Source: an uncultured Bacteroidales bacterium
GTDB taxonomy: Bacteria; Bacteroidota; Bacteroidia; Bacteroidales; FEN-979
Assembly: GCA_903885595.1 (NCBI GenBank)
Contig: CAISJJ010000129.1
Location: forward strand, 424 to 64,423
Direction of reading: 5' to 3'
DNA length: 64,000 nucleotides
Shown here: positions 9,428-22,574 of the stretch, piece after piece
How positions within the stretch are numbered: position 1 is the stretch's first letter
Layout: each line of letters begins with the position of its first letter
Program-made: the position numbers and the translations under genes
The notes under the pieces: model-generated
Database searches by the model: none
Seen by the model: only the letters and a program-made list of their open reading frames with translations
What the model was told of the DNA's origin: nothing

Positions 9428-9758
9428 AGAAACAGGATTTTCGGTATTTGAAACAGCCGGTCTTTAACTTCATCCTGTTGCGTGGCATTTGAGTATGACG
9501 GTGCCGGTATTGATACTTCATTATAGCGAATGCAATACCCTGGCCATATCAGGTGAAATCCTCCAATGATCTCTTTCTTTTCTCTTCGTTAATTGGTTTT
9601 TTTTCAAGTCATTTTACCCAATTTGACTATTTTTGTTTTTCAAACCACCTTGAAAATATTTATTATTTTTCAGAATGAATTTTTCATAATTCAGAGAAGT
9701 TTTTTTCTTGGTCAAGGTAAAATGATTTTTACAAAATAAAATTAAACCGGGACATCAC

Positions 9759-11144
9759 ATGAAGATCAGAACAGTTTTTATGTTTGTGGTTTTTTCCTTT
9801 ATCATAGGATCCGCACAGCCACAGCAGCTTGTATTTAAATCACATGGAAAGGTTAATTATCCTTTAACACCTCAGGAAGAGACGATGTTTGATACAATTC
9901 AGCGTGAAACGTTTCTTTTCTTTTTAAAAGAACATCAGCCTGAAAAGGGTATTGTAAAGGACCGTACCGCAAAATGGGCTCCTGCCAGTATCGCATCAAC
10001 AGGTTTCGGCATTCCCTCATTCGCCGTCGGCGTTGAAAGAAATTGGATATCTCGTGAAAAAGCGGCACAGATTACACTTAATATTCTTAAATTCTTTGCA
10101 AATTCAGTTCAAAGTACTGATACAAATGCAACGGGATACAAAGGATTCTACTATCATTTCCTTAAAATGAATTCCGGCACCCGCGAATGGAAATGCGAAC
10201 TTTCATCAATTGATACCGGCATTCTGTTAATGGGTATCATTTTTGCCCGTAATTATTACAACCTGGACAATGATGTTGAAAAACAGATCCGTTCACTGGC
10301 AGCATTCATCCTTGGCCGGGTTGAATGGAATTTCATGTTATTGCCGGCGTCAAGTAAATACGCCTACACGATTTCCATGGCCTGGTCTCCAGAAAAAGGA
10401 TTGCAGGATTATGGATGGTGTGGCTATAATGAGGCGCTCTTCCTATATGTGTTAGCGGCTGGGAGTGGAATGGAAAATGCTGAACAAAGTTACAAAGCCT
10501 GGCTATCCACATATAAATGGAATACGCCGTACAAAGGACTCTCACATGTGGCATTCCCCCCTCTGTTCGGTCATCAGTTTTCCCAGGCATTTATCGATTA
10601 TCGCGGTATCGTTGATGAATATATGAAAGATAAAGGAATTGATTATTTTGAAAACTCCCGCCGTGCTACCTATGTTCAGCGTCAATATGCCATAGATAAT
10701 CCCAAAGGTTGGATTGGTTATGATTCGCTTTGCTGGGGAGTTACAGCCAGTGACGGACCCGGGGATAAATATAATTTTGGAGATAAAAAGTTTTTGGGTT
10801 ATGCCGGAAGGGGAACGAGCGGACCTGATTACAATTATTTTGACGATGGAACCATTGCACCTTACGGGCCGCTTTCATCACTGCCATTTGCACCTGAAAT
10901 AGTTCTGCCGACCATTAAATCAATCAATCAGAAGTATGGTAAGCATTTATGGGGTAAATATGGCTATTATGATTCTTTCAACCCTACAGCCAAATGGTTT
11001 AATGACGATTTTATCGGTATCGACGAAGGCCCGATGCTGATCATGATCGAGAATTTCAGAACAGGATTTGTCTGGAATTATATGATGAAGGATCCGATAA
11101 TCCAGAAAGGGTTAAACAAACTAGGATATGAATCCTTAAACTAG
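9759..11144 (+). CDS. GH144 / glycoamylase-family protein (putative endo-beta-1,2-glucanase)
   Basis: Signal peptide; ASIASTGFG, ELSSIDTGILL, GYNEA, PPLFGHQFSQAFID, WGVTASDGP, DDGTIAP, GKYGYYDSFN and GIDEGP motifs. Confidence 0.85.
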   Translation: MKIRTVFMFVVFSFIIGSAQPQQLVFKSHGKVNYPLTPQEETMFDTIQRETFLFFLKEHQPEKGIVKDRTAKWAPASIASTGFGIPSFAVGVERNWISREKAAQITLNILKFFANSVQSTDTNATGYKGFYYHFLKMNSGTREWKCELSSIDTGILLMGIIFARNYYNLDNDVEKQIRSLAAFILGRVEWNFMLLPASSKYAYTISMAWSPEKGLQDYGWCGYNEALFLYVLAAGSGMENAEQSYKAWLSTYKWNTPYKGLSHVAFPPLFGHQFSQAFIDYRGIVDEYMKDKGIDYFENSRRATYVQRQYAIDNPKGWIGYDSLCWGVTASDGPGDKYNFGDKKFLGYAGRGTSGPDYNYFDDGTIAPYGPLSSLPFAPEIVLPTIKSINQKYGKHLWGKYGYYDSFNPTAKWFNDDFIGIDEGPMLIMIENFRTGFVWNYMMKDPIIQKGLNKLGYESLN

Positions 11145-11167
11145 GATTTATGGTCTGTAACGCCGGG

Positions 11168-11290
11168 GCAGATGCCGGAAAAAGTTCCCGCAGATTAAAC
11201 TGAAAAACTGCAGATGAGCGCAGAATCATTCATTGATCAAGCTTTATTTTGCGCAATCTGCGGGAAAATTCTCCGCAAATCCGGGAGAAA
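11168..11290. repeat. Inverted-repeat element (GCAGAT family)
   Basis: Perfect 12-bp inverted repeat TTCCCGCAGATT (11185-11196) / AATCTGCGGGAA (11255-11266), plus extra imperfect GCAGAT copies. Confidence 0.8.
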
Positions 11291-11339
11291 TAATAAGGTG
11301 ACTAATACAAAATTTCATATAGTTATATAGCAGTCCACA

Positions 11340-14300
11340 ATGAAAAATCTGATTAAAATGAGGATCATACCATTGATCATGATGATTCTTGCAGCCACAA
11401 TTATCCAGGCACAAACTAAAACCCTTGACGAATTTGAAAACAAAAACGGCTGGGCTTTCATCCGGTCCGATGGTGTTAACCTCAACTTATCCACGGAAAA
11501 AGGATTAACCGGTAATGCGATCCGTTTCGATTATGATTTCACCAAAGGCACCGGTTACGGCGGAATACAGAAGCTATTTCCAATTGATCTCCCCGATAAT
11601 TATGAATTCACCTTTTATGTTAAAGCCGAATCACCTTCCAATAATTTTGAAATAAAATTTATTGACAGCACAGGAAACAATGTTTGGTGGATCAGCAACC
11701 GCAACTATGATTTTCCTTCGGAATGGAAAAAGATCCGGATAAAGAAAAGGCATATCAATTTTGCCTGGGGACCAACGGCTGATCAAAATTTAAAGCGGAT
11801 CGACAGGATTGAATTCACCATTGCATCATTTGTCGGAGGGAAAGGTACCATCTGGCTTGATGATTTGAAATTTGAAGCGCTTCCTCCCGAAGCACAATCA
11901 TATCCCATACCATCCGTCACAGCTTCGTCATCGGTGAAAAACCATTCACCCAACTTAATTATTGATCATTCAGGTGATACGTTTTGGCAGAGCAAAGGGA
12001 TTAAAGATCAGTATGTTGTGATTGATTTTAGGACCCGCCGCGAATTTGGCGGTTTACAGATCAACTGGCTGAAAGATCATTTCGCCGGAAGTTTCGACGT
12101 GCTGTTATCGGAGGATGGTAAGAATTGGGAAAAAGCATATTCGGTCGGATCAAACCGGAGTGATATCAGTTTTATCAGGCTGCCCGAAGCAGAGGCAGCC
12201 TATGTTAAGATAGATCTGAAATATTGCAATTCTGATAAAGGATTCGGTATCTGCGAGGTGAATTTCCTGGATATTAAAAATTCTTTAACGCTGAATGATT
12301 TCCTGATTTACGCTGCGAAAAATTCGCCCGCAGGAAATTATCCGAGATACTTTTCAGAACAAGCATCCTATTGGACCATCACGGGTGTCAACAATGACGT
12401 CAAAGAAGCGCTGATCAATGAAGACGGCATGGTGGAGGTAGATAAAGCCCAATTTTCGGTTGAGCCGATGATAAAGATGGGTGATTCACTTTTTAACTGG
12501 AGCAATGTCAAGGCCGTTCAATCGATGGGATATTCCAACGGTAAAAAGGAATTTGAGTTTGTACCGACTGTTACCTGGCAATGCAACGGTCTGAAATTTG
12601 AAACCGGGGTGACGGCATACGGAGAGGCGAATAAAAATTCCAGGCTTGATATAAGCTATTCTTTTGCAAATCAATCAAATCAGCCAAAGGATTTTGAGCT
12701 TTATCTGTTGATCCGTCCGTACCAGGTTAATCCATACTACCAGTTTCTCAATCTTGCCGGCGGTGTCGGAAAAATATACTCAATTAAAGAAGAGGGTGGA
12801 ATCATAGAGGCCGATAATAAAACGATCCTGTCTCTGAAAAAATATGATTCCTTTGGGGCAGGTGTTTTTGATGAGGGAAATATCGTTGGGCTTCTGCGGA
12901 GCGGAAATGTTCCTCAAAGCACTACTGCTGTTGATAAAAGCGGGCTTGCAAACGGCATAATCAAATATTCATTTCACCTGAATCCCGGGGAACAAACCAA
13001 ATTCTATGTGGTGGTTCCGTTTTACGGGAAACAATCAATTGATAAAAAGCTCAGCAATGCGTCTGTTTCAGAAGAGGCCGGGAAGTCGACTGAATTCTGG
13101 AAAACGAAAGTCGGGCATGTTACATTCAGGTTACCTGCATCAGGCGACAGGATTGTAAACACCTACAGGTCAAATCTTGCGTATATATTGATCAACAGGG
13201 ATCTTGTAGGCGTTCAGCCCGGTTCGCGTTCGTATGAGCGGAGCTGGATGCGCGACGGCGCGCTGACTTCCTCGGCCCTGTTGAAATCAGGCATCGTGCA
13301 GGAGGTGAAAGACTTTATTGACTGGTATGCCGGTCATCAGTATGAAAACGGTAAAGTTCCCTGCGTGGTCGATCACAGGGGGCCCGATCCGGTTCCCGAA
13401 CATGACAGCCATGGTGAACTGATTTATCTGATCCGCGAATATTTCAACTTTACAAAGGATACAACTTTCCTCAGGTCAAAGAACAAAAATGTATTGCAGG
13501 CAGTTACATATATCGAATCGCTGATTGCCGAGCGGTCAACGGATCATTTCAAATACGGGAACGACAGCGTGCGTGCCTACTACGGACTTGTTCCGGAATC
13601 GATCAGTCACGAAGGATATTCCGCAAAACCGATGCACTCATACTGGGATGATTTCTTTGTCATGAAAGGGTTAAAAGATGCAACGGAGATTCAGCAAATA
13701 CTCGGAGTGAAAGAATCGTATGAAAGGCTGAAAAAAGTCCGCGATACATTTAAGGAAAATCTTTACAACTCCTTGAATCTCGCAATGAAAACGCGGAAAA
13801 TCAATTATATCCCCGGCTGTGTGGAACTTGGTGATTTTGATGCAACCTCAACAACAATCGCGTTAACTCCCTGCAACGAACTCAACAACCTGCCAAAACC
13901 GCAGGTTTATAACACCTTTGACAAATACTATGAATTTTTCAAAAACCGGAGAGACGGAAAACTCAACTGGATCAATTACACACCCTATGAAAACCGTTTA
14001 ATTGGTTCGTTCATCATTTTAGATCAGCCAGAAAGAGCCCATGAATTAATTGAATTTTTCCTGAATGATCAGCGTCCGCAGGGATGGAATCACTGGGCTG
14101 AAGTTGTATGGAAAGGATACCGTTTCCCGGGTTATATCGGGGATATGCCGCACACGTGGGTTGGCAGCGATTTTATCAATGCCATCAGGGCCATGTTTGT
14201 TTATGAAAACGAGTCTGATCAATCGCTTGTTCTGGCATCAGCCCTATACCAGGATTGGATCGATTCGCCGGATGGAATGTTGGTTGGAAACCTGCCGACC

Positions 14301-14522
14301 TATTATGGAGAGATCTCCTACACAATAAAAAAAGACAACAATAAATATCTCTTTTCAATTTCCGGTGATCTGAAACTTCCTGCAAACGGAATCAAGATCA
14401 AAAACTTCAACGGGTCAAAACTTCCATCAAAAGTTGTAGTAAATGGAGTTGAAAGCAAAGAGTTCAACGAAAAGGAAATATCGGTGAACACAGTACCTGC
14501 AGAGGTTGTGATTTATTATTAA
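11340..14522 (+). CDS. Secreted multidomain protein: CBM11/CIA30-like + F5/8 type C (discoidin) + putative (alpha/alpha)6 glycoside hydrolase
   Basis: Signal peptide (the start may be the second Met at 11358); GTIWLDDLKF; discoidin SVTASS...FWQS...VIDF...LLSEDGKNW; C-terminal SYERSWMRDGA, EHDSHGE, SHEGYSAKPMHSYWDDF and GDMPHTW. Confidence 0.75.
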   Translation: MKNLIKMRIIPLIMMILAATIIQAQTKTLDEFENKNGWAFIRSDGVNLNLSTEKGLTGNAIRFDYDFTKGTGYGGIQKLFPIDLPDNYEFTFYVKAESPSNNFEIKFIDSTGNNVWWISNRNYDFPSEWKKIRIKKRHINFAWGPTADQNLKRIDRIEFTIASFVGGKGTIWLDDLKFEALPPEAQSYPIPSVTASSSVKNHSPNLIIDHSGDTFWQSKGIKDQYVVIDFRTRREFGGLQINWLKDHFAGSFDVLLSEDGKNWEKAYSVGSNRSDISFIRLPEAEAAYVKIDLKYCNSDKGFGICEVNFLDIKNSLTLNDFLIYAAKNSPAGNYPRYFSEQASYWTITGVNNDVKEALINEDGMVEVDKAQFSVEPMIKMGDSLFNWSNVKAVQSMGYSNGKKEFEFVPTVTWQCNGLKFETGVTAYGEANKNSRLDISYSFANQSNQPKDFELYLLIRPYQVNPYYQFLNLAGGVGKIYSIKEEGGIIEADNKTILSLKKYDSFGAGVFDEGNIVGLLRSGNVPQSTTAVDKSGLANGIIKYSFHLNPGEQTKFYVVVPFYGKQSIDKKLSNASVSEEAGKSTEFWKTKVGHVTFRLPASGDRIVNTYRSNLAYILINRDLVGVQPGSRSYERSWMRDGALTSSALLKSGIVQEVKDFIDWYAGHQYENGKVPCVVDHRGPDPVPEHDSHGELIYLIREYFNFTKDTTFLRSKNKNVLQAVTYIESLIAERSTDHFKYGNDSVRAYYGLVPESISHEGYSAKPMHSYWDDFFVMKGLKDATEIQQILGVKESYERLKKVRDTFKENLYNSLNLAMKTRKINYIPGCVELGDFDATSTTIALTPCNELNNLPKPQVYNTFDKYYEFFKNRRDGKLNWINYTPYENRLIGSFIILDQPERAHELIEFFLNDQRPQGWNHWAEVVWKGYRFPGYIGDMPHTWVGSDFINAIRAMFVYENESDQSLVLASALYQDWIDSPDGMLVGNLPTYYGEISYTIKKDNNKYLFSISGDLKLPANGIKIKNFNGSKLPSKVVVNGVESKEFNEKEISVNTVPAEVVIYY

Positions 14523-14544
14523 CCAAAAGAATCAACAGGGATTT

Positions 14545-16617
14545 ATGAAAGAACAAGAAATTAGCCCGGACCACGCAACAAAACCTGAAGACCGGATTCG
14601 CTTTTCACAATTAGCCGCATATGGCGCCGGCGGGATAATCCCCATTGCCCTTTTCAACATTGCCGGAATCCTCGTTGGTTTGATGGGCAACATAAGTTTG
14701 GGACTGAGCGCATTCTGGCTTGGGGCAATTTTAATCGTCCCCCGTTTATGGGATGCCCTTTCTGATCCTTTTATCGGGCACCTGTCTGATAATACCCGGA
14801 CCCGCTGGGGACGCCGGCGTCCCTATCTGCTGATCGGCGGGATACTCGTCGCAGTGTTTTTTGTGGTCATCTGGTGGATTCCGAAGGGGGATATGGTGCG
14901 AACGTGGTTCCCGTCGGATACGGGGTTCCAATGGTTCCAGCTTGGCTATATCCTTTTTTCCCTTTTGCTGTTTTTTACTGCCGTCAATCTTTTCGAGATC
15001 CCTCACGGTGCCCTCGGCATGGAGATGACCACCGATTACCACGAACGCACCCGGCTGTTCAGCGCCAAGAGTTTTGTAGGCAATCTTTTTGCCATGGGCA
15101 CGCCCTGGCTTTTTGCCCTCGCCAGCATGGAAATTTTCAAAGGTCCCGGAGGAAATGAAGCCGATGGCATGCGTTACGTTTCATTGATGATCGCTGCTGT
15201 TCTGATCCCGCTTTCCTTCTGGTGGTTTTTCAAATTACGTGAACCGGGATTTGTAAAAGCTGCAAAGCATGAAAAAACACCCTTCTGGCAAGACATGAAA
15301 CATACCACCGGCAACCGGAACTTTATCATGCTGACACTGACGATCTTCACGCTGGCCATGGGCTTTAATTTCGTCCAGCTGATAGGGTCATATATCCCTA
15401 TTTTTTATGTTTTCGGGGGAGATAAGGTTGCCGGAGCTTACCTGCTCGCGATCAACGGGATGATCTGGGCCATCACCGGGGTACTGGCAGTATTTCCTCT
15501 TAACTGGATCAGCCCGAGGCTGGGTAAAAGAAATACGCTGACCATTGCTATTTTACTCATGTGCCTTGCACAACTGTCTAAAATTGTATGCTATAACCCT
15601 TCATATCCCTACCTGATCATCATCCCCACGGTGCTGCTTTCTGCCGGAATGCTGTTTTTCTTCACCCTGGGATCCTCCATGGTGGGCGATATCTGTGATG
15701 AAGATGAATTAAAGACAGGGTATCGTTCAGAGGGAAGTTATTACTCGGTATTCTGGTGGTTCATTAAAATGGGATCTGCCCTGGCCAGCTTTGTAACTGG
15801 CGTGTTGATCGTATTTACCATGTTCGATGAAACCCAGGTCACCAAGGTCGATAAGATACAGGGAAGCGTCAGGGAGATGCGAAGCATCGTTCAGTACTGG
15901 AAGGGATACCAGGGGCTCGGCAGCACCAATAAAGAGTGGCTGGAAAACACTAAAACCAAGACAGCCGAAGCGCTAACGGAATCAAAAGAATATATTACCT
16001 ATTTAGGCAAAGAATCCCTGAAAGAGCCTGATAAGGCGAATCAGATCCTGACCTCCTATCCGGATCAGCGGAAAAACATGCTTTCAAATGCACTTCTCAA
16101 AACACAGGTAACAGTCAATGAACTGGAACAGGTTCAATCGCTTCTGGCAAACCTGGTGCCCGGGACTCAGGACTCCCTGATGAATGCCGCCGTTGCAAAA
16201 GCAATCCCACTGACGCTGGAAACAAAACTTGTAAAAGCCAGGATGTATTCTTTTGAGCTCAGGTCGCACCTGGAAGCCAAATCACAGGAAACGAAAAACA
16301 GCAGGGAACACTATGATGTCATCATGCAGGAAATTTCCGGGGTAGACAGCCGGCTTGCCGTCATGAACACTGCATCATCCATGGTTTTGCTGGATAATGA
16401 ACTCGGCGCCATTGAAAGCAGAATCGTACCACTCACTCAGCAAACCCCGTATACACTTTTAATGATGCGTGTGGTTGAGATTGGATTGCCCCTGCTGTTG
16501 AGCCTCTTTTCAATCTTCTTTGTTATGAAGTACTCACTGACGGAGAAACGGAGTCACGAGATTAAGGATTTGCTCAGGGAAAGAAACGTGACGCGTGACG
16601 AAAATCGTGACACGTGA
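14545..16617 (+). CDS. MFS sugar transporter (GPH/MelB family) with a large loop insertion
   Basis: RLWDALSDPFIGHLSDNTRTRWGRRRPY, EMTTDYHERT and SMVGDICDEDEL..G.RSEGSY motifs; about 200 hydrophilic residues lie between the last two TM helices. Confidence 0.88.
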   Translation: MKEQEISPDHATKPEDRIRFSQLAAYGAGGIIPIALFNIAGILVGLMGNISLGLSAFWLGAILIVPRLWDALSDPFIGHLSDNTRTRWGRRRPYLLIGGILVAVFFVVIWWIPKGDMVRTWFPSDTGFQWFQLGYILFSLLLFFTAVNLFEIPHGALGMEMTTDYHERTRLFSAKSFVGNLFAMGTPWLFALASMEIFKGPGGNEADGMRYVSLMIAAVLIPLSFWWFFKLREPGFVKAAKHEKTPFWQDMKHTTGNRNFIMLTLTIFTLAMGFNFVQLIGSYIPIFYVFGGDKVAGAYLLAINGMIWAITGVLAVFPLNWISPRLGKRNTLTIAILLMCLAQLSKIVCYNPSYPYLIIIPTVLLSAGMLFFFTLGSSMVGDICDEDELKTGYRSEGSYYSVFWWFIKMGSALASFVTGVLIVFTMFDETQVTKVDKIQGSVREMRSIVQYWKGYQGLGSTNKEWLENTKTKTAEALTESKEYITYLGKESLKEPDKANQILTSYPDQRKNMLSNALLKTQVTVNELEQVQSLLANLVPGTQDSLMNAAVAKAIPLTLETKLVKARMYSFELRSHLEAKSQETKNSREHYDVIMQEISGVDSRLAVMNTASSMVLLDNELGAIESRIVPLTQQTPYTLLMMRVVEIGLPLLLSLFSIFFVMKYSLTEKRSHEIKDLLRERNVTRDENRDT

Positions 16618-16661
16618 CAAAAAACGTGACGCGTGACGCGTGACAAAAAAACAAGTGACAA
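16587..16661 (+). repeat. CGTGACR heptamer array spanning the MFS stop and ending at the GH35 start
   Basis: CGTGACG x2, CGTGACA x2, CGTGACG x2, CGTGACA, then AGTGACA immediately before ATG 16662. Confidence 0.9.
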
Positions 16662-19094
16662 ATGAAATTCAGGATTAAAGAAAATAGTTTTTATCTTGAC
16701 GACAGGAAGGTTTTTCTCAATTCGGGGGAGATTCATTATTTCAGGATAAAGCGCGAACTTTGGGACAGGCACCTGGATGCAGCCAGGGAGGCCGGTTTGA
16801 CGACTGTCAGCACCTATGTTCCATGGGCATGGCACGAACCGGAGGAATCTGTTTTTGATTTTGACGGTATATCATGTCCCGAACGCGACCTGGAGGGCTG
16901 GCTTCAGCGTTGCCAGGCCCATGGGTTGAACTGCATTATAAAGCCAGGCCCGTTTATCCTGGCTGAGTTCCGGGGAGCCGGTTTGCCTGACTGGTTTATG
17001 GATCAGTATCACGACGAAGTCAGGATGCGCAGCAGCAAAGGTGAGATCGTTCCGGGTGACGGCGTCAGCCTGTTCAATCAAAAATACCTGGAAAAGGTAA
17101 CCTTGTGGTACGATCAGATCATGCCCTTTATCAGTGAACGGGAAATATCAGCCGGTGGTCCCGTCATCATGATGCAGATATGCAATGAGATCGGCGTATT
17201 TTCGTGGCTGGCCAGGCAGGCTGACTATGGCAATGAGGTGAAGGATCGTTTTGTTTCTTACTTATCCCGAAAATTCACAGCCATTTCTGAAGTGAATCGT
17301 TTATGGGGAACAGGTTACCCGGACTTTACACATGTCGAACTTCCTCCCGACGGTAAGCTTCCTTATGTATCCAGGGGTGATCGTGGCCGCGATTACGAAT
17401 GGCACTGTTTCTGGAGAACCTATTACGGCGACTACCTGAGAATGCTGACCGCCATGGCACGTGAAAGAGGCGTGACAGTTCCTTTGTATCACAACCTTCC
17501 TGGCTGGATCTATGGAAACGGCTATGAATTCCCGGTCAACATCACCATGTATGAAGATCTTTTTGGCGATAAGAGCGAGATCATGTTCGGCGTTGATCAT
17601 ATACCGGAATTCATGTCATACCGTAACCTGCACGACGACCGGATCATCAACGACATCACCTTTGCCATGCAGGGGAAGAAACCCCTGTTTGCCGCCGAAT
17701 TCCAGTGCGGTTCCCGTGAATATCACGTGGTGACGAATCCGCGGGAGATGGAACTCTTTTACAAGGCAAGCATTGCCAACGGCCTGGTTGGCTGGAATTA
17801 CTACATGTTCTCACAGGGGCGCAACCCAAGCCGAAAAGGCTATTCGGGGGAGACTTTTTACTGGTTCAACCCGCTTACACCGGAAGGGGAGCGCACCAGC
17901 GCCTTCCCGCTGGTGAAACGGATGAATAAAATTGTAAAAACCTCCGAAACACTTATCGTTAATGCAAAACGGAAAGCTGAAATTTGTGTTCTTTTTTATC
18001 CGCCATATTATGCAACGGAGCTGGAAAGACCGGTTGACGGGGTAATTGAGCTGATGTTCACCGCTTCCGCCATCCGCAGGCCGGCCTATTTCGACGGATT
18101 GCTGAAAGCGCTCCAGGTGCTGAATGTTGATTACGACATGATCGACCTGAGCAAAGCTTCTGCGGATACATTGCATGGATACAAACAGGTGTGGGCATTC
18201 AGCACAGATGAAATGAATGCGGGGGATCAGCAGACCATGGTTGATTATACCAAAGCCGGGGGCAATTGTGTCCTTTTCCCTTATCTTCCTGATCGGGAAA
18301 TGTCGCAGAAACCATGCACCATCATTCGCGATGCCTTGTCCGTATCACCATCCGGGAGAGAAATCATTGATTCTCCGCTGGTCGATATCTATGATCTGAA
18401 AGAGATCAAGTGCGCCAATCCGCTGATCACCTATTCAGAAGAATCACTCTCCGGTGCAGAAATCATTGCCCGGACGCTTCATGGCACTCCATGTGGATTC
18501 ACCAAAGTTCTCGGACTCGGAACGGTGATCCACCTCGGAACCTGGATCGGGTTCGACACCGAGGGACATAAACCGGTATATGAGGCAATCCTGGAAAGAT
18601 CAGATGCAAAACTCAGGCAGGCATCAGTCAGCAATGATTTTATCGCGGTCAGGGAACGTTTCACGGATGACAATACCGCAATGCTTTTCGTTGGGAATTA
18701 TTACAACGAAGAACAAACCGGCAAAGTAACCTATACGCATCCGGAAACCGGCGAAACAATATCAATGCCTTACACCCGGGATGAAATTTTATGGCCGGCA
18801 CTTTACGGTTTATTAACTCCGGTTTGCCTGGAAGTTTCTGACGGGTTTAAGATCCTTCACAGCACCTCCGACATTCTCGGGATTGCACGGGTTGACGGTC
18901 AAATAGAGATAACCCTTCACGGAGACCGTGACCTGGCCGGGGAGATTGTTTTTGAAGGTGTAAAAGTTGATAGAATTGAATCCGCAACATTAAATGGCGA
19001 AAATGTAAAAATGGTTCGTGATGGCAAACGGGTTGCATTTGTTTACAATCATCTGCATATGGTGGAAATGATTCTGACTATCAGAATAGAATAG
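16662..19094 (+). CDS. GH35 family glycosidase/transglucosylase (GlmA-like architecture), cytoplasmic
   Basis: SGEIHYFR, TYVPWAWHEP, KPGPFILAE, MQICNE (acid/base) and AAEFQCG (nucleophile) motifs; GH42-like insertion; no signal peptide. Confidence 0.85.
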   Translation: MKFRIKENSFYLDDRKVFLNSGEIHYFRIKRELWDRHLDAAREAGLTTVSTYVPWAWHEPEESVFDFDGISCPERDLEGWLQRCQAHGLNCIIKPGPFILAEFRGAGLPDWFMDQYHDEVRMRSSKGEIVPGDGVSLFNQKYLEKVTLWYDQIMPFISEREISAGGPVIMMQICNEIGVFSWLARQADYGNEVKDRFVSYLSRKFTAISEVNRLWGTGYPDFTHVELPPDGKLPYVSRGDRGRDYEWHCFWRTYYGDYLRMLTAMARERGVTVPLYHNLPGWIYGNGYEFPVNITMYEDLFGDKSEIMFGVDHIPEFMSYRNLHDDRIINDITFAMQGKKPLFAAEFQCGSREYHVVTNPREMELFYKASIANGLVGWNYYMFSQGRNPSRKGYSGETFYWFNPLTPEGERTSAFPLVKRMNKIVKTSETLIVNAKRKAEICVLFYPPYYATELERPVDGVIELMFTASAIRRPAYFDGLLKALQVLNVDYDMIDLSKASADTLHGYKQVWAFSTDEMNAGDQQTMVDYTKAGGNCVLFPYLPDREMSQKPCTIIRDALSVSPSGREIIDSPLVDIYDLKEIKCANPLITYSEESLSGAEIIARTLHGTPCGFTKVLGLGTVIHLGTWIGFDTEGHKPVYEAILERSDAKLRQASVSNDFIAVRERFTDDNTAMLFVGNYYNEEQTGKVTYTHPETGETISMPYTRDEILWPALYGLLTPVCLEVSDGFKILHSTSDILGIARVDGQIEITLHGDRDLAGEIVFEGVKVDRIESATLNGENVKMVRDGKRVAFVYNHLHMVEMILTIRIE

Positions 19095-19119
19095 GTTTTT
19101 ACAAAATACAGAAAACAAT

Positions 19120-19220
19120 AACCGCAAAGGGCGCACAGAATCACAAAAAGAACACGAAGTAATAATCAGGGTGTTCTCCTCTGCGAACTCCGCGATAATC
19201 TCCGCGACCTCTGCGTTAAA
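19120..19220. repeat. Degenerate inverted element (CGCAGAG/CTCTGCG family)
   Basis: ACCGCAAAGGGCGCACAG...GAACAC on the left; GTGTTC..CTCTGCG..CTCCGCG..CTCCGCG..CTCTGCGTT on the right. Confidence 0.6.
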
Positions 19221-19229
19221 ATATATATC

Positions 19230-22200
19230 ATGAAGATCAAAAACTCCCTCGGATTATCAATCGGTTTCCTGGAAAATGGCTCAATGAAGAGCATCGAAGT
19301 TGCTCCAATCAGAATAAGCCTCAAACCGGCAACGCCTTTTTCAAAATCAGGTCCAAACATTTGGTTAAGGAAACGAACAAAAACCATTGAATACAAAGCA
19401 TTGCTGGGTCCCGAAAGCAACAGCCGGTTTGCGGTGACTGACAATGAACTGTATGCCGAAGGCAGCTGGGACGGTCTTGATTATGTTTGTGTGCTACAGC
19501 TTTCAGAAAAAAGTCTGAGCTGGAAGTGGCGCATCGGGATTCATAATTCTTCGGGCGATGTTGCTGACCTTGATTTGATTTATGTGCAGGATGCCGGATT
19601 AAAGCAAATATCCGATGGATTGGTGAACGAATATTATGTTAGCCAGTATCTCGAGCGGCGCATCCTGGAAGATAAAATTTATGGTTCCGTCATCTGTTGC
19701 CGTCAAAACATGAAAGAATCCGCCAGGCATCCATGGCTGATGATGGCCTGTAAAAATGCAGCTGTAGCTGCAGGTGTTGACGGGATGCAGTTTTACGGCA
19801 AAACATACAGGGAAACCGGGATTCCGGAAGGGTTGCTTACCGACAGGCTTGGTGGCGAGTATGCCGGGGAATCGTCGGTTCTTGCCCTGCAGGAGAAACC
19901 GTTTATGCTTGCTCCGGGAGCTCATCATCAAAGTATTTTTGTCGCGACCTGTTTGCCGGATCACCCGCTGGCCACCTCAGATGATGACCTGAACCGGTTA
20001 CCCGGGCTGATGATAGAATTTGACTCCGAATCTTCTTATGCAAGGCCGGCTGAATTGTTATCTCCGGTTAAAAATATTTTTAATACGACGGGATTTTTAC
20101 CGGTTGATGATTTGAATGATGAAGAACTTGACCGGTTTTTTGGCAATGAACGGCGTCATTGTGAAGAAGAAAATGGTCAGCTTTTGTCATTTTTCTGTGA
20201 TCATAATAACCATGTCGTTCTACGTACGAAAGAAATTTTGGCTGACCGGCCGCATGCACATATCATGCAGGCCCGTGCAGGTTATGCTCCCGATGAAAAT
20301 ATAATTTCAACCACTTCATTCGCATTTGGTGTTTTCAATTCACATCTTTCGCAGGGGAATACGAACTTCAATGTGTTTCTTTCCATATGTACCAGTCAGT
20401 TCAATCTGGAACCTGAAGCAGGACAACGGATCATAGTAACGATCGATGGCCGGCAGTATTTACTTGGAGTTCCTTCAGCTTTCGAAATCGGGCTGAATCA
20501 TTGCCGTTGGATTTACAAATCAGGTGATCATTGTTTTCAGGTCCGCAGCTGGCCCTCCGCAACTGTGCCACAGGTAAACATGGATTTCAAGGTTATCAGC
20601 GGCTGCAAGGTGAATTTACTGATCACCCATGATTTTGACCGGCTCAATGGCTGGACTGTCTCCGCAGGTCATTCAGACAGGGAGTTTGTTGCTACACCAA
20701 TGGCAGGCAGCATGATCGCGGAAAAGTTTCCCGGGGCACAATTCAGAATGATAATTCAACAGCTTAATTCCGATTACAAACCCTGTGGAAAAGAGGCGCT
20801 ATACCCGGTTTATCAAAGCCAGGGGTCATCGTTGTTCGTCCTCGAAGTACGGGAACCATCTGATTTCTGTATGAGTTTCATTGGTGAGGTTTGTTCGGCT
20901 GTTAAGACTGATAGAATTGCAGATGCAGATGCTCAGTGGGTTTCAGATTGTGAGGCAGGCCAGTCAGTATGGAACGACCTGTGTTTAAATCTGTCTTTGA
21001 AAGGAGACCAGGAAGATGCCGCAGCAATCCGGGAAATCCTGCCATGGTATGGCATGAATGCGCTGACCCATTTTTTGACGCCCTATGGATTGGAACAATT
21101 CAGCGGAGCTGCCTGGGGAACGCGCGATATTTCGCAGGGCCCGTTAGACCTGTTGCTGTGCATGGAAAAATATGATGCAGCCCGGCAGATCCTGCGCACC
21201 ATCTTCTCCAACCAGAACCCTGACGGCGGATGGCCTCAATGGTGGATGTTCGACAGCTACGCAAATATCAGGGCCGGCGACTCGCATGGCGATGTGGTTT
21301 ACTGGACCATCATTGCCCTCAGCAACTATATAAAGGTTACCGGAGATATCAAAATCCTTGACGAGATTCTTCCTTTCTATTATGACAAAGGTATTTCCCA
21401 TGCTGAAACAGCCCCCCTCAGCGAACATGTTGACCGGCTTGTCAAAATGATCGTTGATTCATTCATTTCCGGCACCTCCCTGGTGCCCTTCGGAGGCGGC
21501 GACTGGAACGACTCCCTGCAACCGGTCAGCAAGGATCTGGCGCATCGCATGATCTCAAGCTGGACAGTCGAAATGAATTACCAGGCCTTTATGCAATACC
21601 AACTGGTTTATGCACAATCGGGAAACAGGGGAAAAGCCGGTGAATTGAAGGCGATCTGTGAGCACATAAAATCAGACTTTAACAAATACCTGGTTAAAGA
21701 TGGAATTGTTGCAGGATACGGACTGGTCGAAGAAGATCGCACCATCAGCGTACTGCTTCACCCAAGTGATCACACGACCAACATCCATTACAGCATACTG
21801 CCGATGAACCGGGGCATCATCAGTGAAATTTTTACCAAAGAGCAGGCGCTCTATCACCAGGATTTAATTGAAAAGTACCTGAAAGGTCCCGATGGCGCGC
21901 GTTTGATGGATCGTCCGCTCAGATACAAGGGTGGGATTCAAACTATTTTCCAGAGAGCAGAAAGCAGCACCTTCTTTGGCCGCGAGATAGGACTCATGTA
22001 TGTACACGAACATATTCGCTATGCAGAAGCCCAGGCCCGGACGGGCAGGGCCGATGCCTTTCTGAAAGCGCTCCGCCAGGCCATCCCGGTTGCATACCGG
22101 GATATTGTATCCTGCGGGGATGTCCGCCAGGCGAATTGTTATTACAGCAGTTCCGACGTTGCTTTTAAAAGCCGGTATGAAGCCGATGATCTTTACGATG

Positions 22201-22574
22201 AAATAAAAACAGGAAAGATCACGCTCAGGGGCGGATGGAGGGTTTATTCCAGCGGTCCGGGCATTTATGTCGGGTTGATAGTAACCCGGTTGCTTGGCCT
22301 GCGCATCGAATCCGGCAATGTAATTATCGACCCGGTTATTGCCCATTCTTTAAATGATTTTTCTGCATCCCTGGAATTTATGGGCTATCCGGTCACCTTA
22401 ACCTATGTGGTAAAGGAGGATTGTTTTGGTCCTAAAGCCATCACCATTAACGAAAAGCCAGTTGAGTTCATCTGCGAAGAAAACAAATACCGGCAGGGAG
22501 GGGCAATCATTCCGGCAGACCGGTTTTTAGCCAGGTTAAATCAAACAGATAATAGGATTGAGGTACAGTTATAG
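19230..22574 (+). CDS. GH94 phosphorylase, 1,2-beta-oligoglucan phosphorylase (SOGP)-like
   Basis: 1114 aa with no signal peptide; GAAWGTRD, WPQWWMFD, SHGDVVYW, GDWNDSLQP, RAESSTFFGREIGLMYVHEHIRY and GWRVYSSGPGIY motifs recalled from the SOGP clade. Confidence 0.85.
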   Translation: MKIKNSLGLSIGFLENGSMKSIEVAPIRISLKPATPFSKSGPNIWLRKRTKTIEYKALLGPESNSRFAVTDNELYAEGSWDGLDYVCVLQLSEKSLSWKWRIGIHNSSGDVADLDLIYVQDAGLKQISDGLVNEYYVSQYLERRILEDKIYGSVICCRQNMKESARHPWLMMACKNAAVAAGVDGMQFYGKTYRETGIPEGLLTDRLGGEYAGESSVLALQEKPFMLAPGAHHQSIFVATCLPDHPLATSDDDLNRLPGLMIEFDSESSYARPAELLSPVKNIFNTTGFLPVDDLNDEELDRFFGNERRHCEEENGQLLSFFCDHNNHVVLRTKEILADRPHAHIMQARAGYAPDENIISTTSFAFGVFNSHLSQGNTNFNVFLSICTSQFNLEPEAGQRIIVTIDGRQYLLGVPSAFEIGLNHCRWIYKSGDHCFQVRSWPSATVPQVNMDFKVISGCKVNLLITHDFDRLNGWTVSAGHSDREFVATPMAGSMIAEKFPGAQFRMIIQQLNSDYKPCGKEALYPVYQSQGSSLFVLEVREPSDFCMSFIGEVCSAVKTDRIADADAQWVSDCEAGQSVWNDLCLNLSLKGDQEDAAAIREILPWYGMNALTHFLTPYGLEQFSGAAWGTRDISQGPLDLLLCMEKYDAARQILRTIFSNQNPDGGWPQWWMFDSYANIRAGDSHGDVVYWTIIALSNYIKVTGDIKILDEILPFYYDKGISHAETAPLSEHVDRLVKMIVDSFISGTSLVPFGGGDWNDSLQPVSKDLAHRMISSWTVEMNYQAFMQYQLVYAQSGNRGKAGELKAICEHIKSDFNKYLVKDGIVAGYGLVEEDRTISVLLHPSDHTTNIHYSILPMNRGIISEIFTKEQALYHQDLIEKYLKGPDGARLMDRPLRYKGGIQTIFQRAESSTFFGREIGLMYVHEHIRYAEAQARTGRADAFLKALRQAIPVAYRDIVSCGDVRQANCYYSSSDVAFKSRYEADDLYDEIKTGKITLRGGWRVYSSGPGIYVGLIVTRLLGLRIESGNVIIDPVIAHSLNDFSASLEFMGYPVTLTYVVKEDCFGPKAITINEKPVEFICEENKYRQGGAIIPADRFLARLNQTDNRIEVQL

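Follow-up and report, generated by a model that had tools for sequence, protein, structure and literature searches.

Beta-1,2-glucans, which occur in cyclic and osmoregulated periplasmic forms, are products of many Proteobacteria and play a role in symbiosis and infection. [quoted passage not shown] In the Ignavibacterium album cluster (around IALB_1177-1187; Kobayashi et al. 2022, PMC8861115), which contains no beta-glucosidase gene and for which degradation of beta-1,2-glucan was proposed, a GH144 gene is accompanied by genes for the GH35 beta-1,2-glucosyltransferase IaSGT and, according to the paper, a GH94 protein homologous to the SOGP domain found in cyclic glucan synthase. The four-domain SOGPs of Listeria innocua (cluster lin1839-1843) and Lachnoclostridium phytofermentans (LpSOGP) convert sophoro-oligosaccharides (Sopn) with a degree of polymerization (DP) of 3 or more to glucose-1-phosphate (Glc-1-P), thereby forming an energy-saving core. 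The Chloroflexus aurantiacus cluster (Chy400_4165-4178; PMC13731917, 2026) brings together genes for GH144 glucanases, an IaSGT homolog from GH35, and a putative SOGP, and polysaccharide utilization loci (PULs) of Bacteroidota, such as the Bacteroides thetaiotaomicron SGL cluster with GH3 and that of Chitinophaga pinensis CpSGL, employ a GH144 endo-glucanase as the depolymerase. Here, a five-gene locus is described in the window, namely the whole 64-kb stretch of DNA that was analyzed, from contig C129 of a lake-water Bacteroidota metagenome-assembled genome (MAG; 6.0 Mb, 547 contigs, 94.5% complete). Its genes encode, in order, a GH144 homolog, an uncharacterized protein of 1060 residues, a transporter of the major facilitator superfamily (MFS), a GH35 protein, and an SOGP-type GH94 protein, and probably constitute a single catabolic module for beta-1,2-glucan or Sopn, the function of each component being predicted.

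The I. album cluster resembles the window locus in that its GH144 gene is directly followed by an ortholog of the 1060-residue protein (57% identity) and in its GH35 enzyme (36%); its GH94 gene lies outside the stretch mapped by tblastn in this work (L004). It differs in having an ABC system, a homolog of the Sopn-binding protein, and a TonB-dependent receptor where the window has an MFS transporter bearing a large insert, and in adding an esterase and a second GH144 protein with a tail for the type IX secretion system (T9SS). In addition, the I. album GH94 protein is described as a homolog of the cyclic glucan synthase SOGP domain, whereas that of the window is a long Firmicutes-type SOGP with the extra N-terminal domain Ndom1. 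Unlike the window locus, the Listeria cluster finishes sophorose with the GH3 enzyme Lin1840 and imports its substrates through the ABC system Lin1841-1843, and no GH144, GH35, or 1060-residue homolog has been described there. The Chloroflexus cluster likewise differs in possessing GH3 and two ABC systems, with no MFS transporter, and its SOGP is distant from characterized ones. In contrast to the GH144 PULs of the same phylum, the window locus has no adjacent SusC/SusD pair, regulator, or GH3 gene, and the cytoplasmic half of its predicted pathway is phosphorolytic and transglycosylating rather than hydrolytic. Distinctive here are the insert-bearing MFS transporter in place of an ABC system, a long Firmicutes-type SOGP in a Bacteroidota genome, and a compact locus with neither a regulator nor SusC/SusD.

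Gene content and conservation of the locus

An open reading frame (ORF) scan of the window placed the five genes, all on the forward (+) strand and separated by gaps of 195, 22, 44, and 135 bp, exactly where the initial annotation of this DNA had drawn its five co-directional genes. A synteny search, which that annotation had recommended, recovered the identical five-gene order in a Lentimicrobium MAG (L003) and in another genome from the same class (L015), and the order GH144, 1060-residue protein, MFS, GH35, and SOGP is kept in 8/8 same-genus loci, as far as the contigs reach. This recurrence argues that the clustering is not due to chance. The Lentimicrobium locus has an additional GH172 gene (L003 17814-19802), which separates GH35 from SOGP.

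The first gene (9759..11144, + strand) encodes a 461-residue homolog of GH144 endo-beta-1,2-glucanases that matches PF10091 at E = 4.5e-71 (239 bits against a Pfam cut-off of 27). Its best relative of solved structure is XcSGL (XCC2207, 8xul), a Xanthomonas beta-1,2-glucanase, at E = 4e-109, with CpSGL (5gzh) at 3.5e-42. Residues E239, F286, and Y367 of XcSGL, which define the GH-S/SGL clan (PMC12102758), have retained equivalents in the E of GYNE, the F of PLFGHQ, and the Y of FLGYAGRG, respectively; 8xul is an E239Q construct, and its SEQRES offset of 14 was applied in the residue mapping. Judged by the family model and by characterized members, the protein belongs to the beta-1,2-glucanase family, as annotated initially, and its activity is predicted accordingly. 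Its N-terminus (MKIRTVFMFVVFSFIIGSAQ) is hydrophobic, resembles a signal peptidase I (SPI) signal, and contains no Cys, hence no lipobox; there is no T9SS tail. The 1060-residue protein also begins with an SPI-like hydrophobic stretch and has neither a lipobox Cys nor a T9SS tail. Since both features are absent from both proteins, they are assigned to the periplasm and not to the cell surface, which narrows the earlier label "secreted". Inspection of the N-termini found signal peptides on these first two proteins alone and none on the GH35 and GH94 proteins, supporting a pathway split between periplasm and cytoplasm and fitting the cytoplasmic location initially given to the latter pair.

The last gene (19230..22574, + strand) encodes a 1114-residue GH94 protein with the four-domain architecture of SOGP, including the extra N-terminal sandwich (Ndom1) that in SOGP closes the pocket within the monomer (PMC5309861). 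Pfam detects SOGP_N at residues 13-237 (1.2e-51), SOGP_2nd at 308-550 (7.6e-48), the Glyco_hydro_94 catalytic domain, and SOGP_4th at 1023-1110. The alignment with LpSOGP (5h3z) is full-length (residues 37-1110, E = 4e-169), compared with 2e-9 to 8e-4 for cellobiose, chitobiose, and cellobionic acid phosphorylases; thus, the protein groups with LpSOGP, in keeping with the SOGP-like label given initially, and not with the cellobiose or chitobiose phosphorylases (~1e-9); grouping with cellobiose, laminaribiose, or other phosphorylases had been named initially as part of what would speak against that label. The residues named in PMC5309861 were checked on a HMMER alignment: in LpSOGP numbering, N138, Y141, Q621, A626, R630, D631, W758, D760, R907, R916, E917, Y922, H924, Y1004, S1005, and S1006 are all retained, and the sole change is that of G623, which makes a water-mediated contact to sophorose (Sop2), to Ser. 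The retained set includes the catalytic acid (D760), the residues of subsite -1, the specificity pair (R907/Y141), and the phosphate ligands (Y922, H924, and S1005) of LpSOGP (PMC5309861). By these sequence features, the protein is an SOGP-type enzyme.

The fourth gene (16662..19094, + strand) encodes an 810-residue protein, predicted to be cytoplasmic, with the Pfam domains Glyco_hydro_35 and GLMA_2nd. Its best solved relatives are the IaSGT structures 7vkw/7vkx (E = 1.6e-148), compared with 3e-65 to 4e-58 for archaeal GlmA glucosaminidases and about 1e-26 or weaker for beta-galactosidases; a beta-galactosidase type was rejected on the strength of this difference. The acid/base E176, the nucleophile E343, and E102 of IaSGT, together with L100, V179, F180, and L183 from its aglycone pocket, with roles as given in PMC8861115, are all identical in the window protein, which is predicted to be an IaSGT-type beta-1,2-glucosyltransferase that would disproportionate Sopn by transfer without hydrolysis.

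The third gene (14545..16617, + strand) encodes a 690-residue transporter that matches MFS_2 in Pfam (E = 1.5e-65, 222 bits) and TIGR00792 (gph) at E = 3.6e-50, a score below the trusted cut-off of that model. Its hydropathy profile has 12 segments, with 10 clear peaks before residue 427, a weaker transmembrane (TM) segment TM5 (~170-195), and TM12 at residues 643-661, and by sequence it is a member of the glycoside-pentoside-hexuronide (GPH) cation symporter family with 12 TM helices. Between TM11 and TM12 lies a hydrophilic, helix-rich insert of ~205 residues (~436-640; window positions 15850-16470). The AlphaFold2 (AF2) model of the transporter was poor overall (pLDDT 60, pTM 0.46) and folded the insert into six helices (pLDDT 70-92); only this secondary structure was used. 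Judging by the basic C-terminal tail, the insert probably lies on the periplasmic side. Homologs with the insert number 989 in Bacteroidota MAGs, and at least 12 of these apparently share contigs with homologs of the 1060-residue protein (contigs were matched by size). From context alone, Sopn are the predicted substrate, making the protein a putative importer of beta-1,2-glucooligosaccharides.

An uncharacterized GH94-like protein family

The most interesting single element of the locus is the second gene (11340..14522, + strand), the product of which is a predicted periplasmic glycoside hydrolase from an unclassified, GH94-like family. The initial annotation had described it as an unclassified protein with a carbohydrate-binding module (CBM) and an (alpha/alpha)6 domain, and both parts recur in the predicted fold. 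Its sole Pfam match is F5/8 type C (residues 192-305), and NCBIfam returned a sub-threshold GH15-like hint and nothing more. The catalytic part had no PDB match by sequence or family profile, such searches matching just CBM32 and, weakly, CBM11; the GH94 Pfam domain is absent, and the PDB search touched GH94 only via the linker region (E 0.08). The AF2 model, built on an alignment of 70 sequences, was confident (pLDDT 91, pTM 0.88) and predicts a weakly CBM11-like beta-sandwich (residues 27-180), a CBM32 domain of the F5/8 type C (192-310), a beta-supersandwich (345-560), a helical linker (573-590), an (alpha/alpha)6 barrel (600-953), and a C-terminal beta domain (954-1060). GH94 enzymes have been described as sharing such a core of supersandwich, linker, (alpha/alpha)6 barrel, and C-terminal domain (PMC5309861). 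In a Foldseek search of the PDB with this model, GH94 cellobiose and chitobiose phosphorylases ranked at the top (E = 3e-17, target TM-scores of 0.53-0.59, 11-13% identity); next came a GH15-like dextran dextrinase and then GH116, GH15, GH65, and GH78. Membership in the SGL clan (GH144/162/189/192-194) was considered and rejected, as none of the solved GH144-type chains (8xul, 5gzh, and 4gl3) ranked among the best 50 Foldseek matches and the sequences showed no similarity.

Profile alignment of the family with GH94 sequences from related loci by hhalign gave a probability of 91-92% (E ~1e-6) over up to 468 columns. The invariant W636-x-R638-D639 was aligned with the R-D pair by which GH94 enzymes bind glucose in subsite -1, and the GH94 catalytic Asp (W-x-D) was aligned with E753, which is present in 49/58 and 61/70 sequences; the invariant E758, part of a SISHEGY motif, stands five residues further on. 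The phosphate-binding His of LpSOGP, H924, was aligned with P882, an invariant residue that precedes the likewise invariant Y883-E884, and the position of the phosphate-binding S1005 is a gap, in a remote alignment that may be shifted at either site. With neither a significant match to the family nor the phosphate His and Ser, the protein falls outside GH94 as judged by sequence, and it seems to have no equivalents of these two phosphate ligands. Because the ligands are apparently missing and the protein is located in the periplasm, a hydrolase is likelier than a phosphorylase. Candidate catalytic residues, proposed from this one remote alignment, are E758 together with E884, E921, or D935. 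Eight acidic residues, as well as W636-x-R638-D639, SISHEGY, and YE884xR, are invariant down to 33% identity to the window protein.

The family comprises 3398 representatives (at 50% identity) with E <= 1e-3, of which 987 have E < 1e-30, and most members are ~1050 residues long and alignable end to end. The homologs come from Bacteroidota, Ignavibacteriales, KSB1, and Longimicrobium and are annotated just as discoidin domain-containing or hypothetical; no published characterization of the family was found in the literature searched. The I. album ortholog (P0316) lies inside the published cluster, between the GH144 gene and an esterase gene that is followed by IaSGT (IALB_1185). The paper on that cluster is silent on P0316 in its text, figure aside, and P0316 is presumably among the cluster genes described there as hard to predict in function (PMC8861115). 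When 23 further loci from the phylum and KSB1 were mapped by tblastn, the homolog adjoined GH144 and/or a Sopn-type ABC system in 22 of them, the ABC type being called by a binding protein resembling the Sopn-binding-protein homolog of I. album. A short, 800-residue GH94 protein is often encoded in these loci, and sometimes GH3 or an esterase. Fusions of GH144 with the 1060-residue protein form three protein clusters (P0029, P0031, and P0071; 1481-1516 residues) as annotated, which could be gene-calling joins; one such fusion belongs to a SusC/SusD/GH144/GH3/.../MFS locus.

Esterases near members of this family hint that the natural substrates are acylated, e.g., succinylated, beta-1,2-glucans. 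In I. album, a serine esterase gene (L004 13226-13957) adjoins the ortholog. A GDSL domain is fused to GH3 in a KSB1 MAG (L005 13247-16075), and GDSL domains are also fused to the homologs P0280 and P0281.

The odds that the 1060-residue protein is a glycoside hydrolase with beta-1,2-glucan, in one form or another, as its substrate are judged slightly better than even. Rather unlikely, at roughly half that weight, is a role other than beta-1,2 hydrolysis, in which the protein would strip natural beta-1,2-glucans of their decorations or closures, such as beta-1,6 branching in osmoregulated periplasmic glucans or, in cyclic glucans of the Xanthomonas type, the alpha-1,6 closure, or would be a non-catalytic binder. 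Its two CBM-like domains would suit such a role, the esterase links in related loci suggest substituted natural substrates, and co-occurrence with GH144, and sometimes GH3, would leave a plain exo-glucosidase partly redundant. Against mere binding, however, stand the eight invariant acidic residues and the sugar-pocket motifs, which are of the kind found in GH94/GH15-type barrels and argue for catalysis.

Predicted pathway and competing explanations

In the proposed pathway, GH144 would endo-cleave beta-1,2-glucan into short Sopn in the periplasm, where the 1060-residue protein would serve as a second glycoside hydrolase, acting on the same polymer or on forms that GH144 handles poorly. The GPH-family symporter would import Sopn into the cytoplasm, and SOGP, an enzyme type that cannot phosphorolyze sophorose and requires a DP of 3 or more (PMC5309861), would trim them to sophorose with release of alpha-Glc-1-P. 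GH35 would turn two Sop2 into Sop3 and glucose, and Sop3 would re-feed SOGP, so that the net reaction would be Sop2 + Pi -> Glc + Glc-1-P. Because a GH35 protein of the IaSGT type would re-feed SOGP in this manner, no beta-glucosidase would be needed. For uptake across the outer membrane, the pathway probably depends on another locus of this genome, on contig C425.

This predicted division of labor mirrors that of MalQ (amylomaltase) and MalP (maltodextrin phosphorylase) in Escherichia coli, where the transglycosylase lengthens the disaccharide that the phosphorylase cannot attack and frees glucose, and the phosphorylase yields a sugar-1-phosphate. The likeness is one of analogy only: MalQ and MalP, from GH77 and GT35, act on alpha-1,4 linkages, and their folds and linkage are unrelated to those of GH35 and GH94 on beta-1,2-glucan.

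Disproportionation of sophorose by GH35 is given an even chance of being the main route. IaSGT disproportionates Sop2-5 by transfer of a single glucose, with no hydrolysis (PMC8861115), and for the Chloroflexus cluster, which has SOGP, GH35, and GH3, disproportionation was accepted by the authors as the metabolic role (PMC13731917). Several observations weigh against the pathway as drawn. The window GH35 protein is ~36% identical to IaSGT, the Km values of which are very poor (120 and 300 mM for Sop2 and Sop3, respectively), and IaSGT prefers aryl/alkyl glucosides as acceptors, with kcat/Km 30-800x that of Sop2 alone (PMC8861115). In view of this poor affinity and preference, the physiological role of IaSGT may be the formation of sophorosides rather than disproportionation. 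GH3 adjoins the module in sister species, and GH3 genes are also present elsewhere in the genome under study, so that the data do not call for a glucosidase-free route. According to PMC13731917 (2026), ABC systems are the only transporters linked to beta-1,2-glucans to date, and no MFS transporter of Sopn has been characterized; such an importer would therefore be new. The role assigned to the 1060-residue protein draws on where its gene lies, on a modeled fold, and on a single remote alignment. Lastly, the locus is present in lake-water DNA metagenomes only, and none of the RNA runs searched holds it.

The absence of GH3 from the locus, as initially annotated, held on inspection: neither GH3 nor a sugar regulator was found beside the cluster or among the other large ORFs scanned in the 64-kb window. 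Across the genus, however, this absence is not fixed. Three of the eight same-genus loci add a divergent second GH144 gene upstream, and two of those three also add GH3; thus, the missing beta-glucosidase is a detail of lineage and not a rule of design. Mutual exclusivity of GH35 and GH3 among related loci was also considered and is refuted by same-genus loci carrying both. In the genome under study, contigs C203 and C89 each carry a terminal GH3 fragment, and C203 begins with a GH144 fragment.

An unlikely use of these enzymes, somewhat less probable than the decoration or binding roles weighed above for the 1060-residue protein, is that, although the locus does serve to use beta-1,2-glucan, GH35 does not re-feed SOGP but takes sophorose as the donor to glucosylate aryl or alkyl glucosides, yielding sophorosides, with GH3 encoded elsewhere hydrolyzing sophorose. 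The 30-800x higher kcat/Km of IaSGT for glucoside acceptors and the conserved aglycone pocket (L100, V179, F180, and L183) are what this explanation would predict, and a source of GH3 is offered by the genes of the same genome, one of them on a contig with a GH144 fragment, and by the sister loci in which GH3 lies directly upstream. Yet neither the locus nor its surroundings showed a candidate aglycone pathway, in this lineage the gene immediately upstream of SOGP is GH35 in every case, and the published discussion of the Chloroflexus cluster favors disproportionation (PMC13731917). A synthetic direction, in which SOGP and GH35 would build beta-1,2-glucooligosaccharides or sophorosides from Glc-1-P for export by the MFS transporter, accords with the reversibility of SOGP reactions and the pure transferase character of IaSGT, but is very improbable given that two periplasmic proteins of degradative type head the cluster, that GPH transporters are importing cation symporters, that relatives join the module to SusC/SusD and GH3, which are hallmarks of catabolism, and that known beta-1,2-glucan synthesis proceeds via GT84 Cgs or OpgH and not through these genes (PMC12102758).

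Genomic setting and significance

The frequency of the components was assessed in 301 genomes evenly drawn from the phylum, within which the taxonomy used places Ignavibacterium. Homologs of the 1060-residue protein occur in 30/301 genomes, SGT-type GH35 in 4/301, always beside a 1060-residue homolog, and the long SOGP in 2/301. Closer to the source genome, SOGP was found in 10 of 18 other species of the genus, whereas all 12 genomes that represent other families in the order lacked it. The layout had been called unusual for Bacteroidota in the initial annotation, which the rarity of the long SOGP supports and the missing GH3, carried by sister species, does not. The parts of the module differ in their affinities: the window 1060-residue protein is 70% identical to that of an Ignavibacteriaceae genome as against 63% for a same-class genome (G131), whereas the GH35 protein is 65% identical to that of G131 and just 36-39% to Ignavibacteriaceae GH35. 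Such sequence identities suggest a mosaic module, parts of which were exchanged between classes. Base composition and GC content are even over the region, and a profile of the window revealed no anomaly pointing to recent acquisition.

No SusC/SusD pair was found beside the cluster or among the other large ORFs scanned in the 64-kb window, and the locus thus lacks the adjacent SusC/SusD pair of a canonical Bacteroidota PUL; on one related contig, SusC/SusD lie upstream of the module. Three further GH144 genes are present in the same genome outside the window. Contig C425 (locus L011, 1-12000) carries a regulator, an 808-residue GH144 protein with a T9SS sorting domain, SusC, SusD, and an adjoining GH30 gene; SusC/SusD are cut by the contig end, and the sensor-type regulator has only Reg_prop/Y_Y_Y matches in Pfam. 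This locus is probably the outer-membrane front end for the window module.

Upstream, the cluster is flanked by genes of the beta-oxidation type (3-hydroxyacyl-CoA dehydrogenase, thiolase, and a nitronate monooxygenase-type protein), and downstream, on the opposite strand, by genes for a T9SS-tail protein and a cytochrome c, all of which are unrelated to the cluster. The largest gap ahead of the cluster, 331 bp at 9428..9758 (+ strand), is the likely promoter region and contains one Bacteroidota-type -7 motif, TAnnTTTG, at 9628. Scans for sigma-70 promoters and terminators returned sites no more frequently than in shuffled sequence, and the promoter assignment is weak for that reason. The MFS-GH35 spacer contains 2.7 tandem copies of GTGACGC (16626-16644), and short GC-rich motifs of the CTGCG/CTCCGCG type occur in the spacers between GH144 and the second gene (11200-11290) and between GH35 and SOGP (19165-19215); these GC-rich spacer repeats may be REP-like elements, attenuators, or regulator sites.

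Natural recycling of beta-1,2-glucan is known from few gene clusters, and the window locus represents a compact predicted degradative module in lake Bacteroidota. Tentatively, and with somewhat less than even confidence in the combination as a whole, the 1060-residue protein is proposed to found a new GH family, namely one of periplasmic hydrolases with CBMs, kin to the GH94 phosphorylases, which would act on beta-1,2-glucan as a core and hitherto overlooked locus member in Ignavibacteria, Bacteroidia, KSB1, and others, alongside, in the present lineage, a new type of MFS importer for Sopn with a periplasmic six-helix domain and a glucosidase-free end pathway of GH35 and SOGP. The family is a widespread, uncharacterized group of predicted carbohydrate-active enzymes, almost always encoded beside GH144 and already present, unstudied, in the Ignavibacterium cluster, and the transporter is the first candidate MFS-type importer for beta-1,2-glucooligosaccharides. 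SOGP and transglucosylases are tools for bulk production of beta-1,2-glucan, for which new variants are of practical value. For the organism itself, the pairing of GH35 with SOGP could explain the use of sophorose without a beta-glucosidase, with one ATP saved per glucose.

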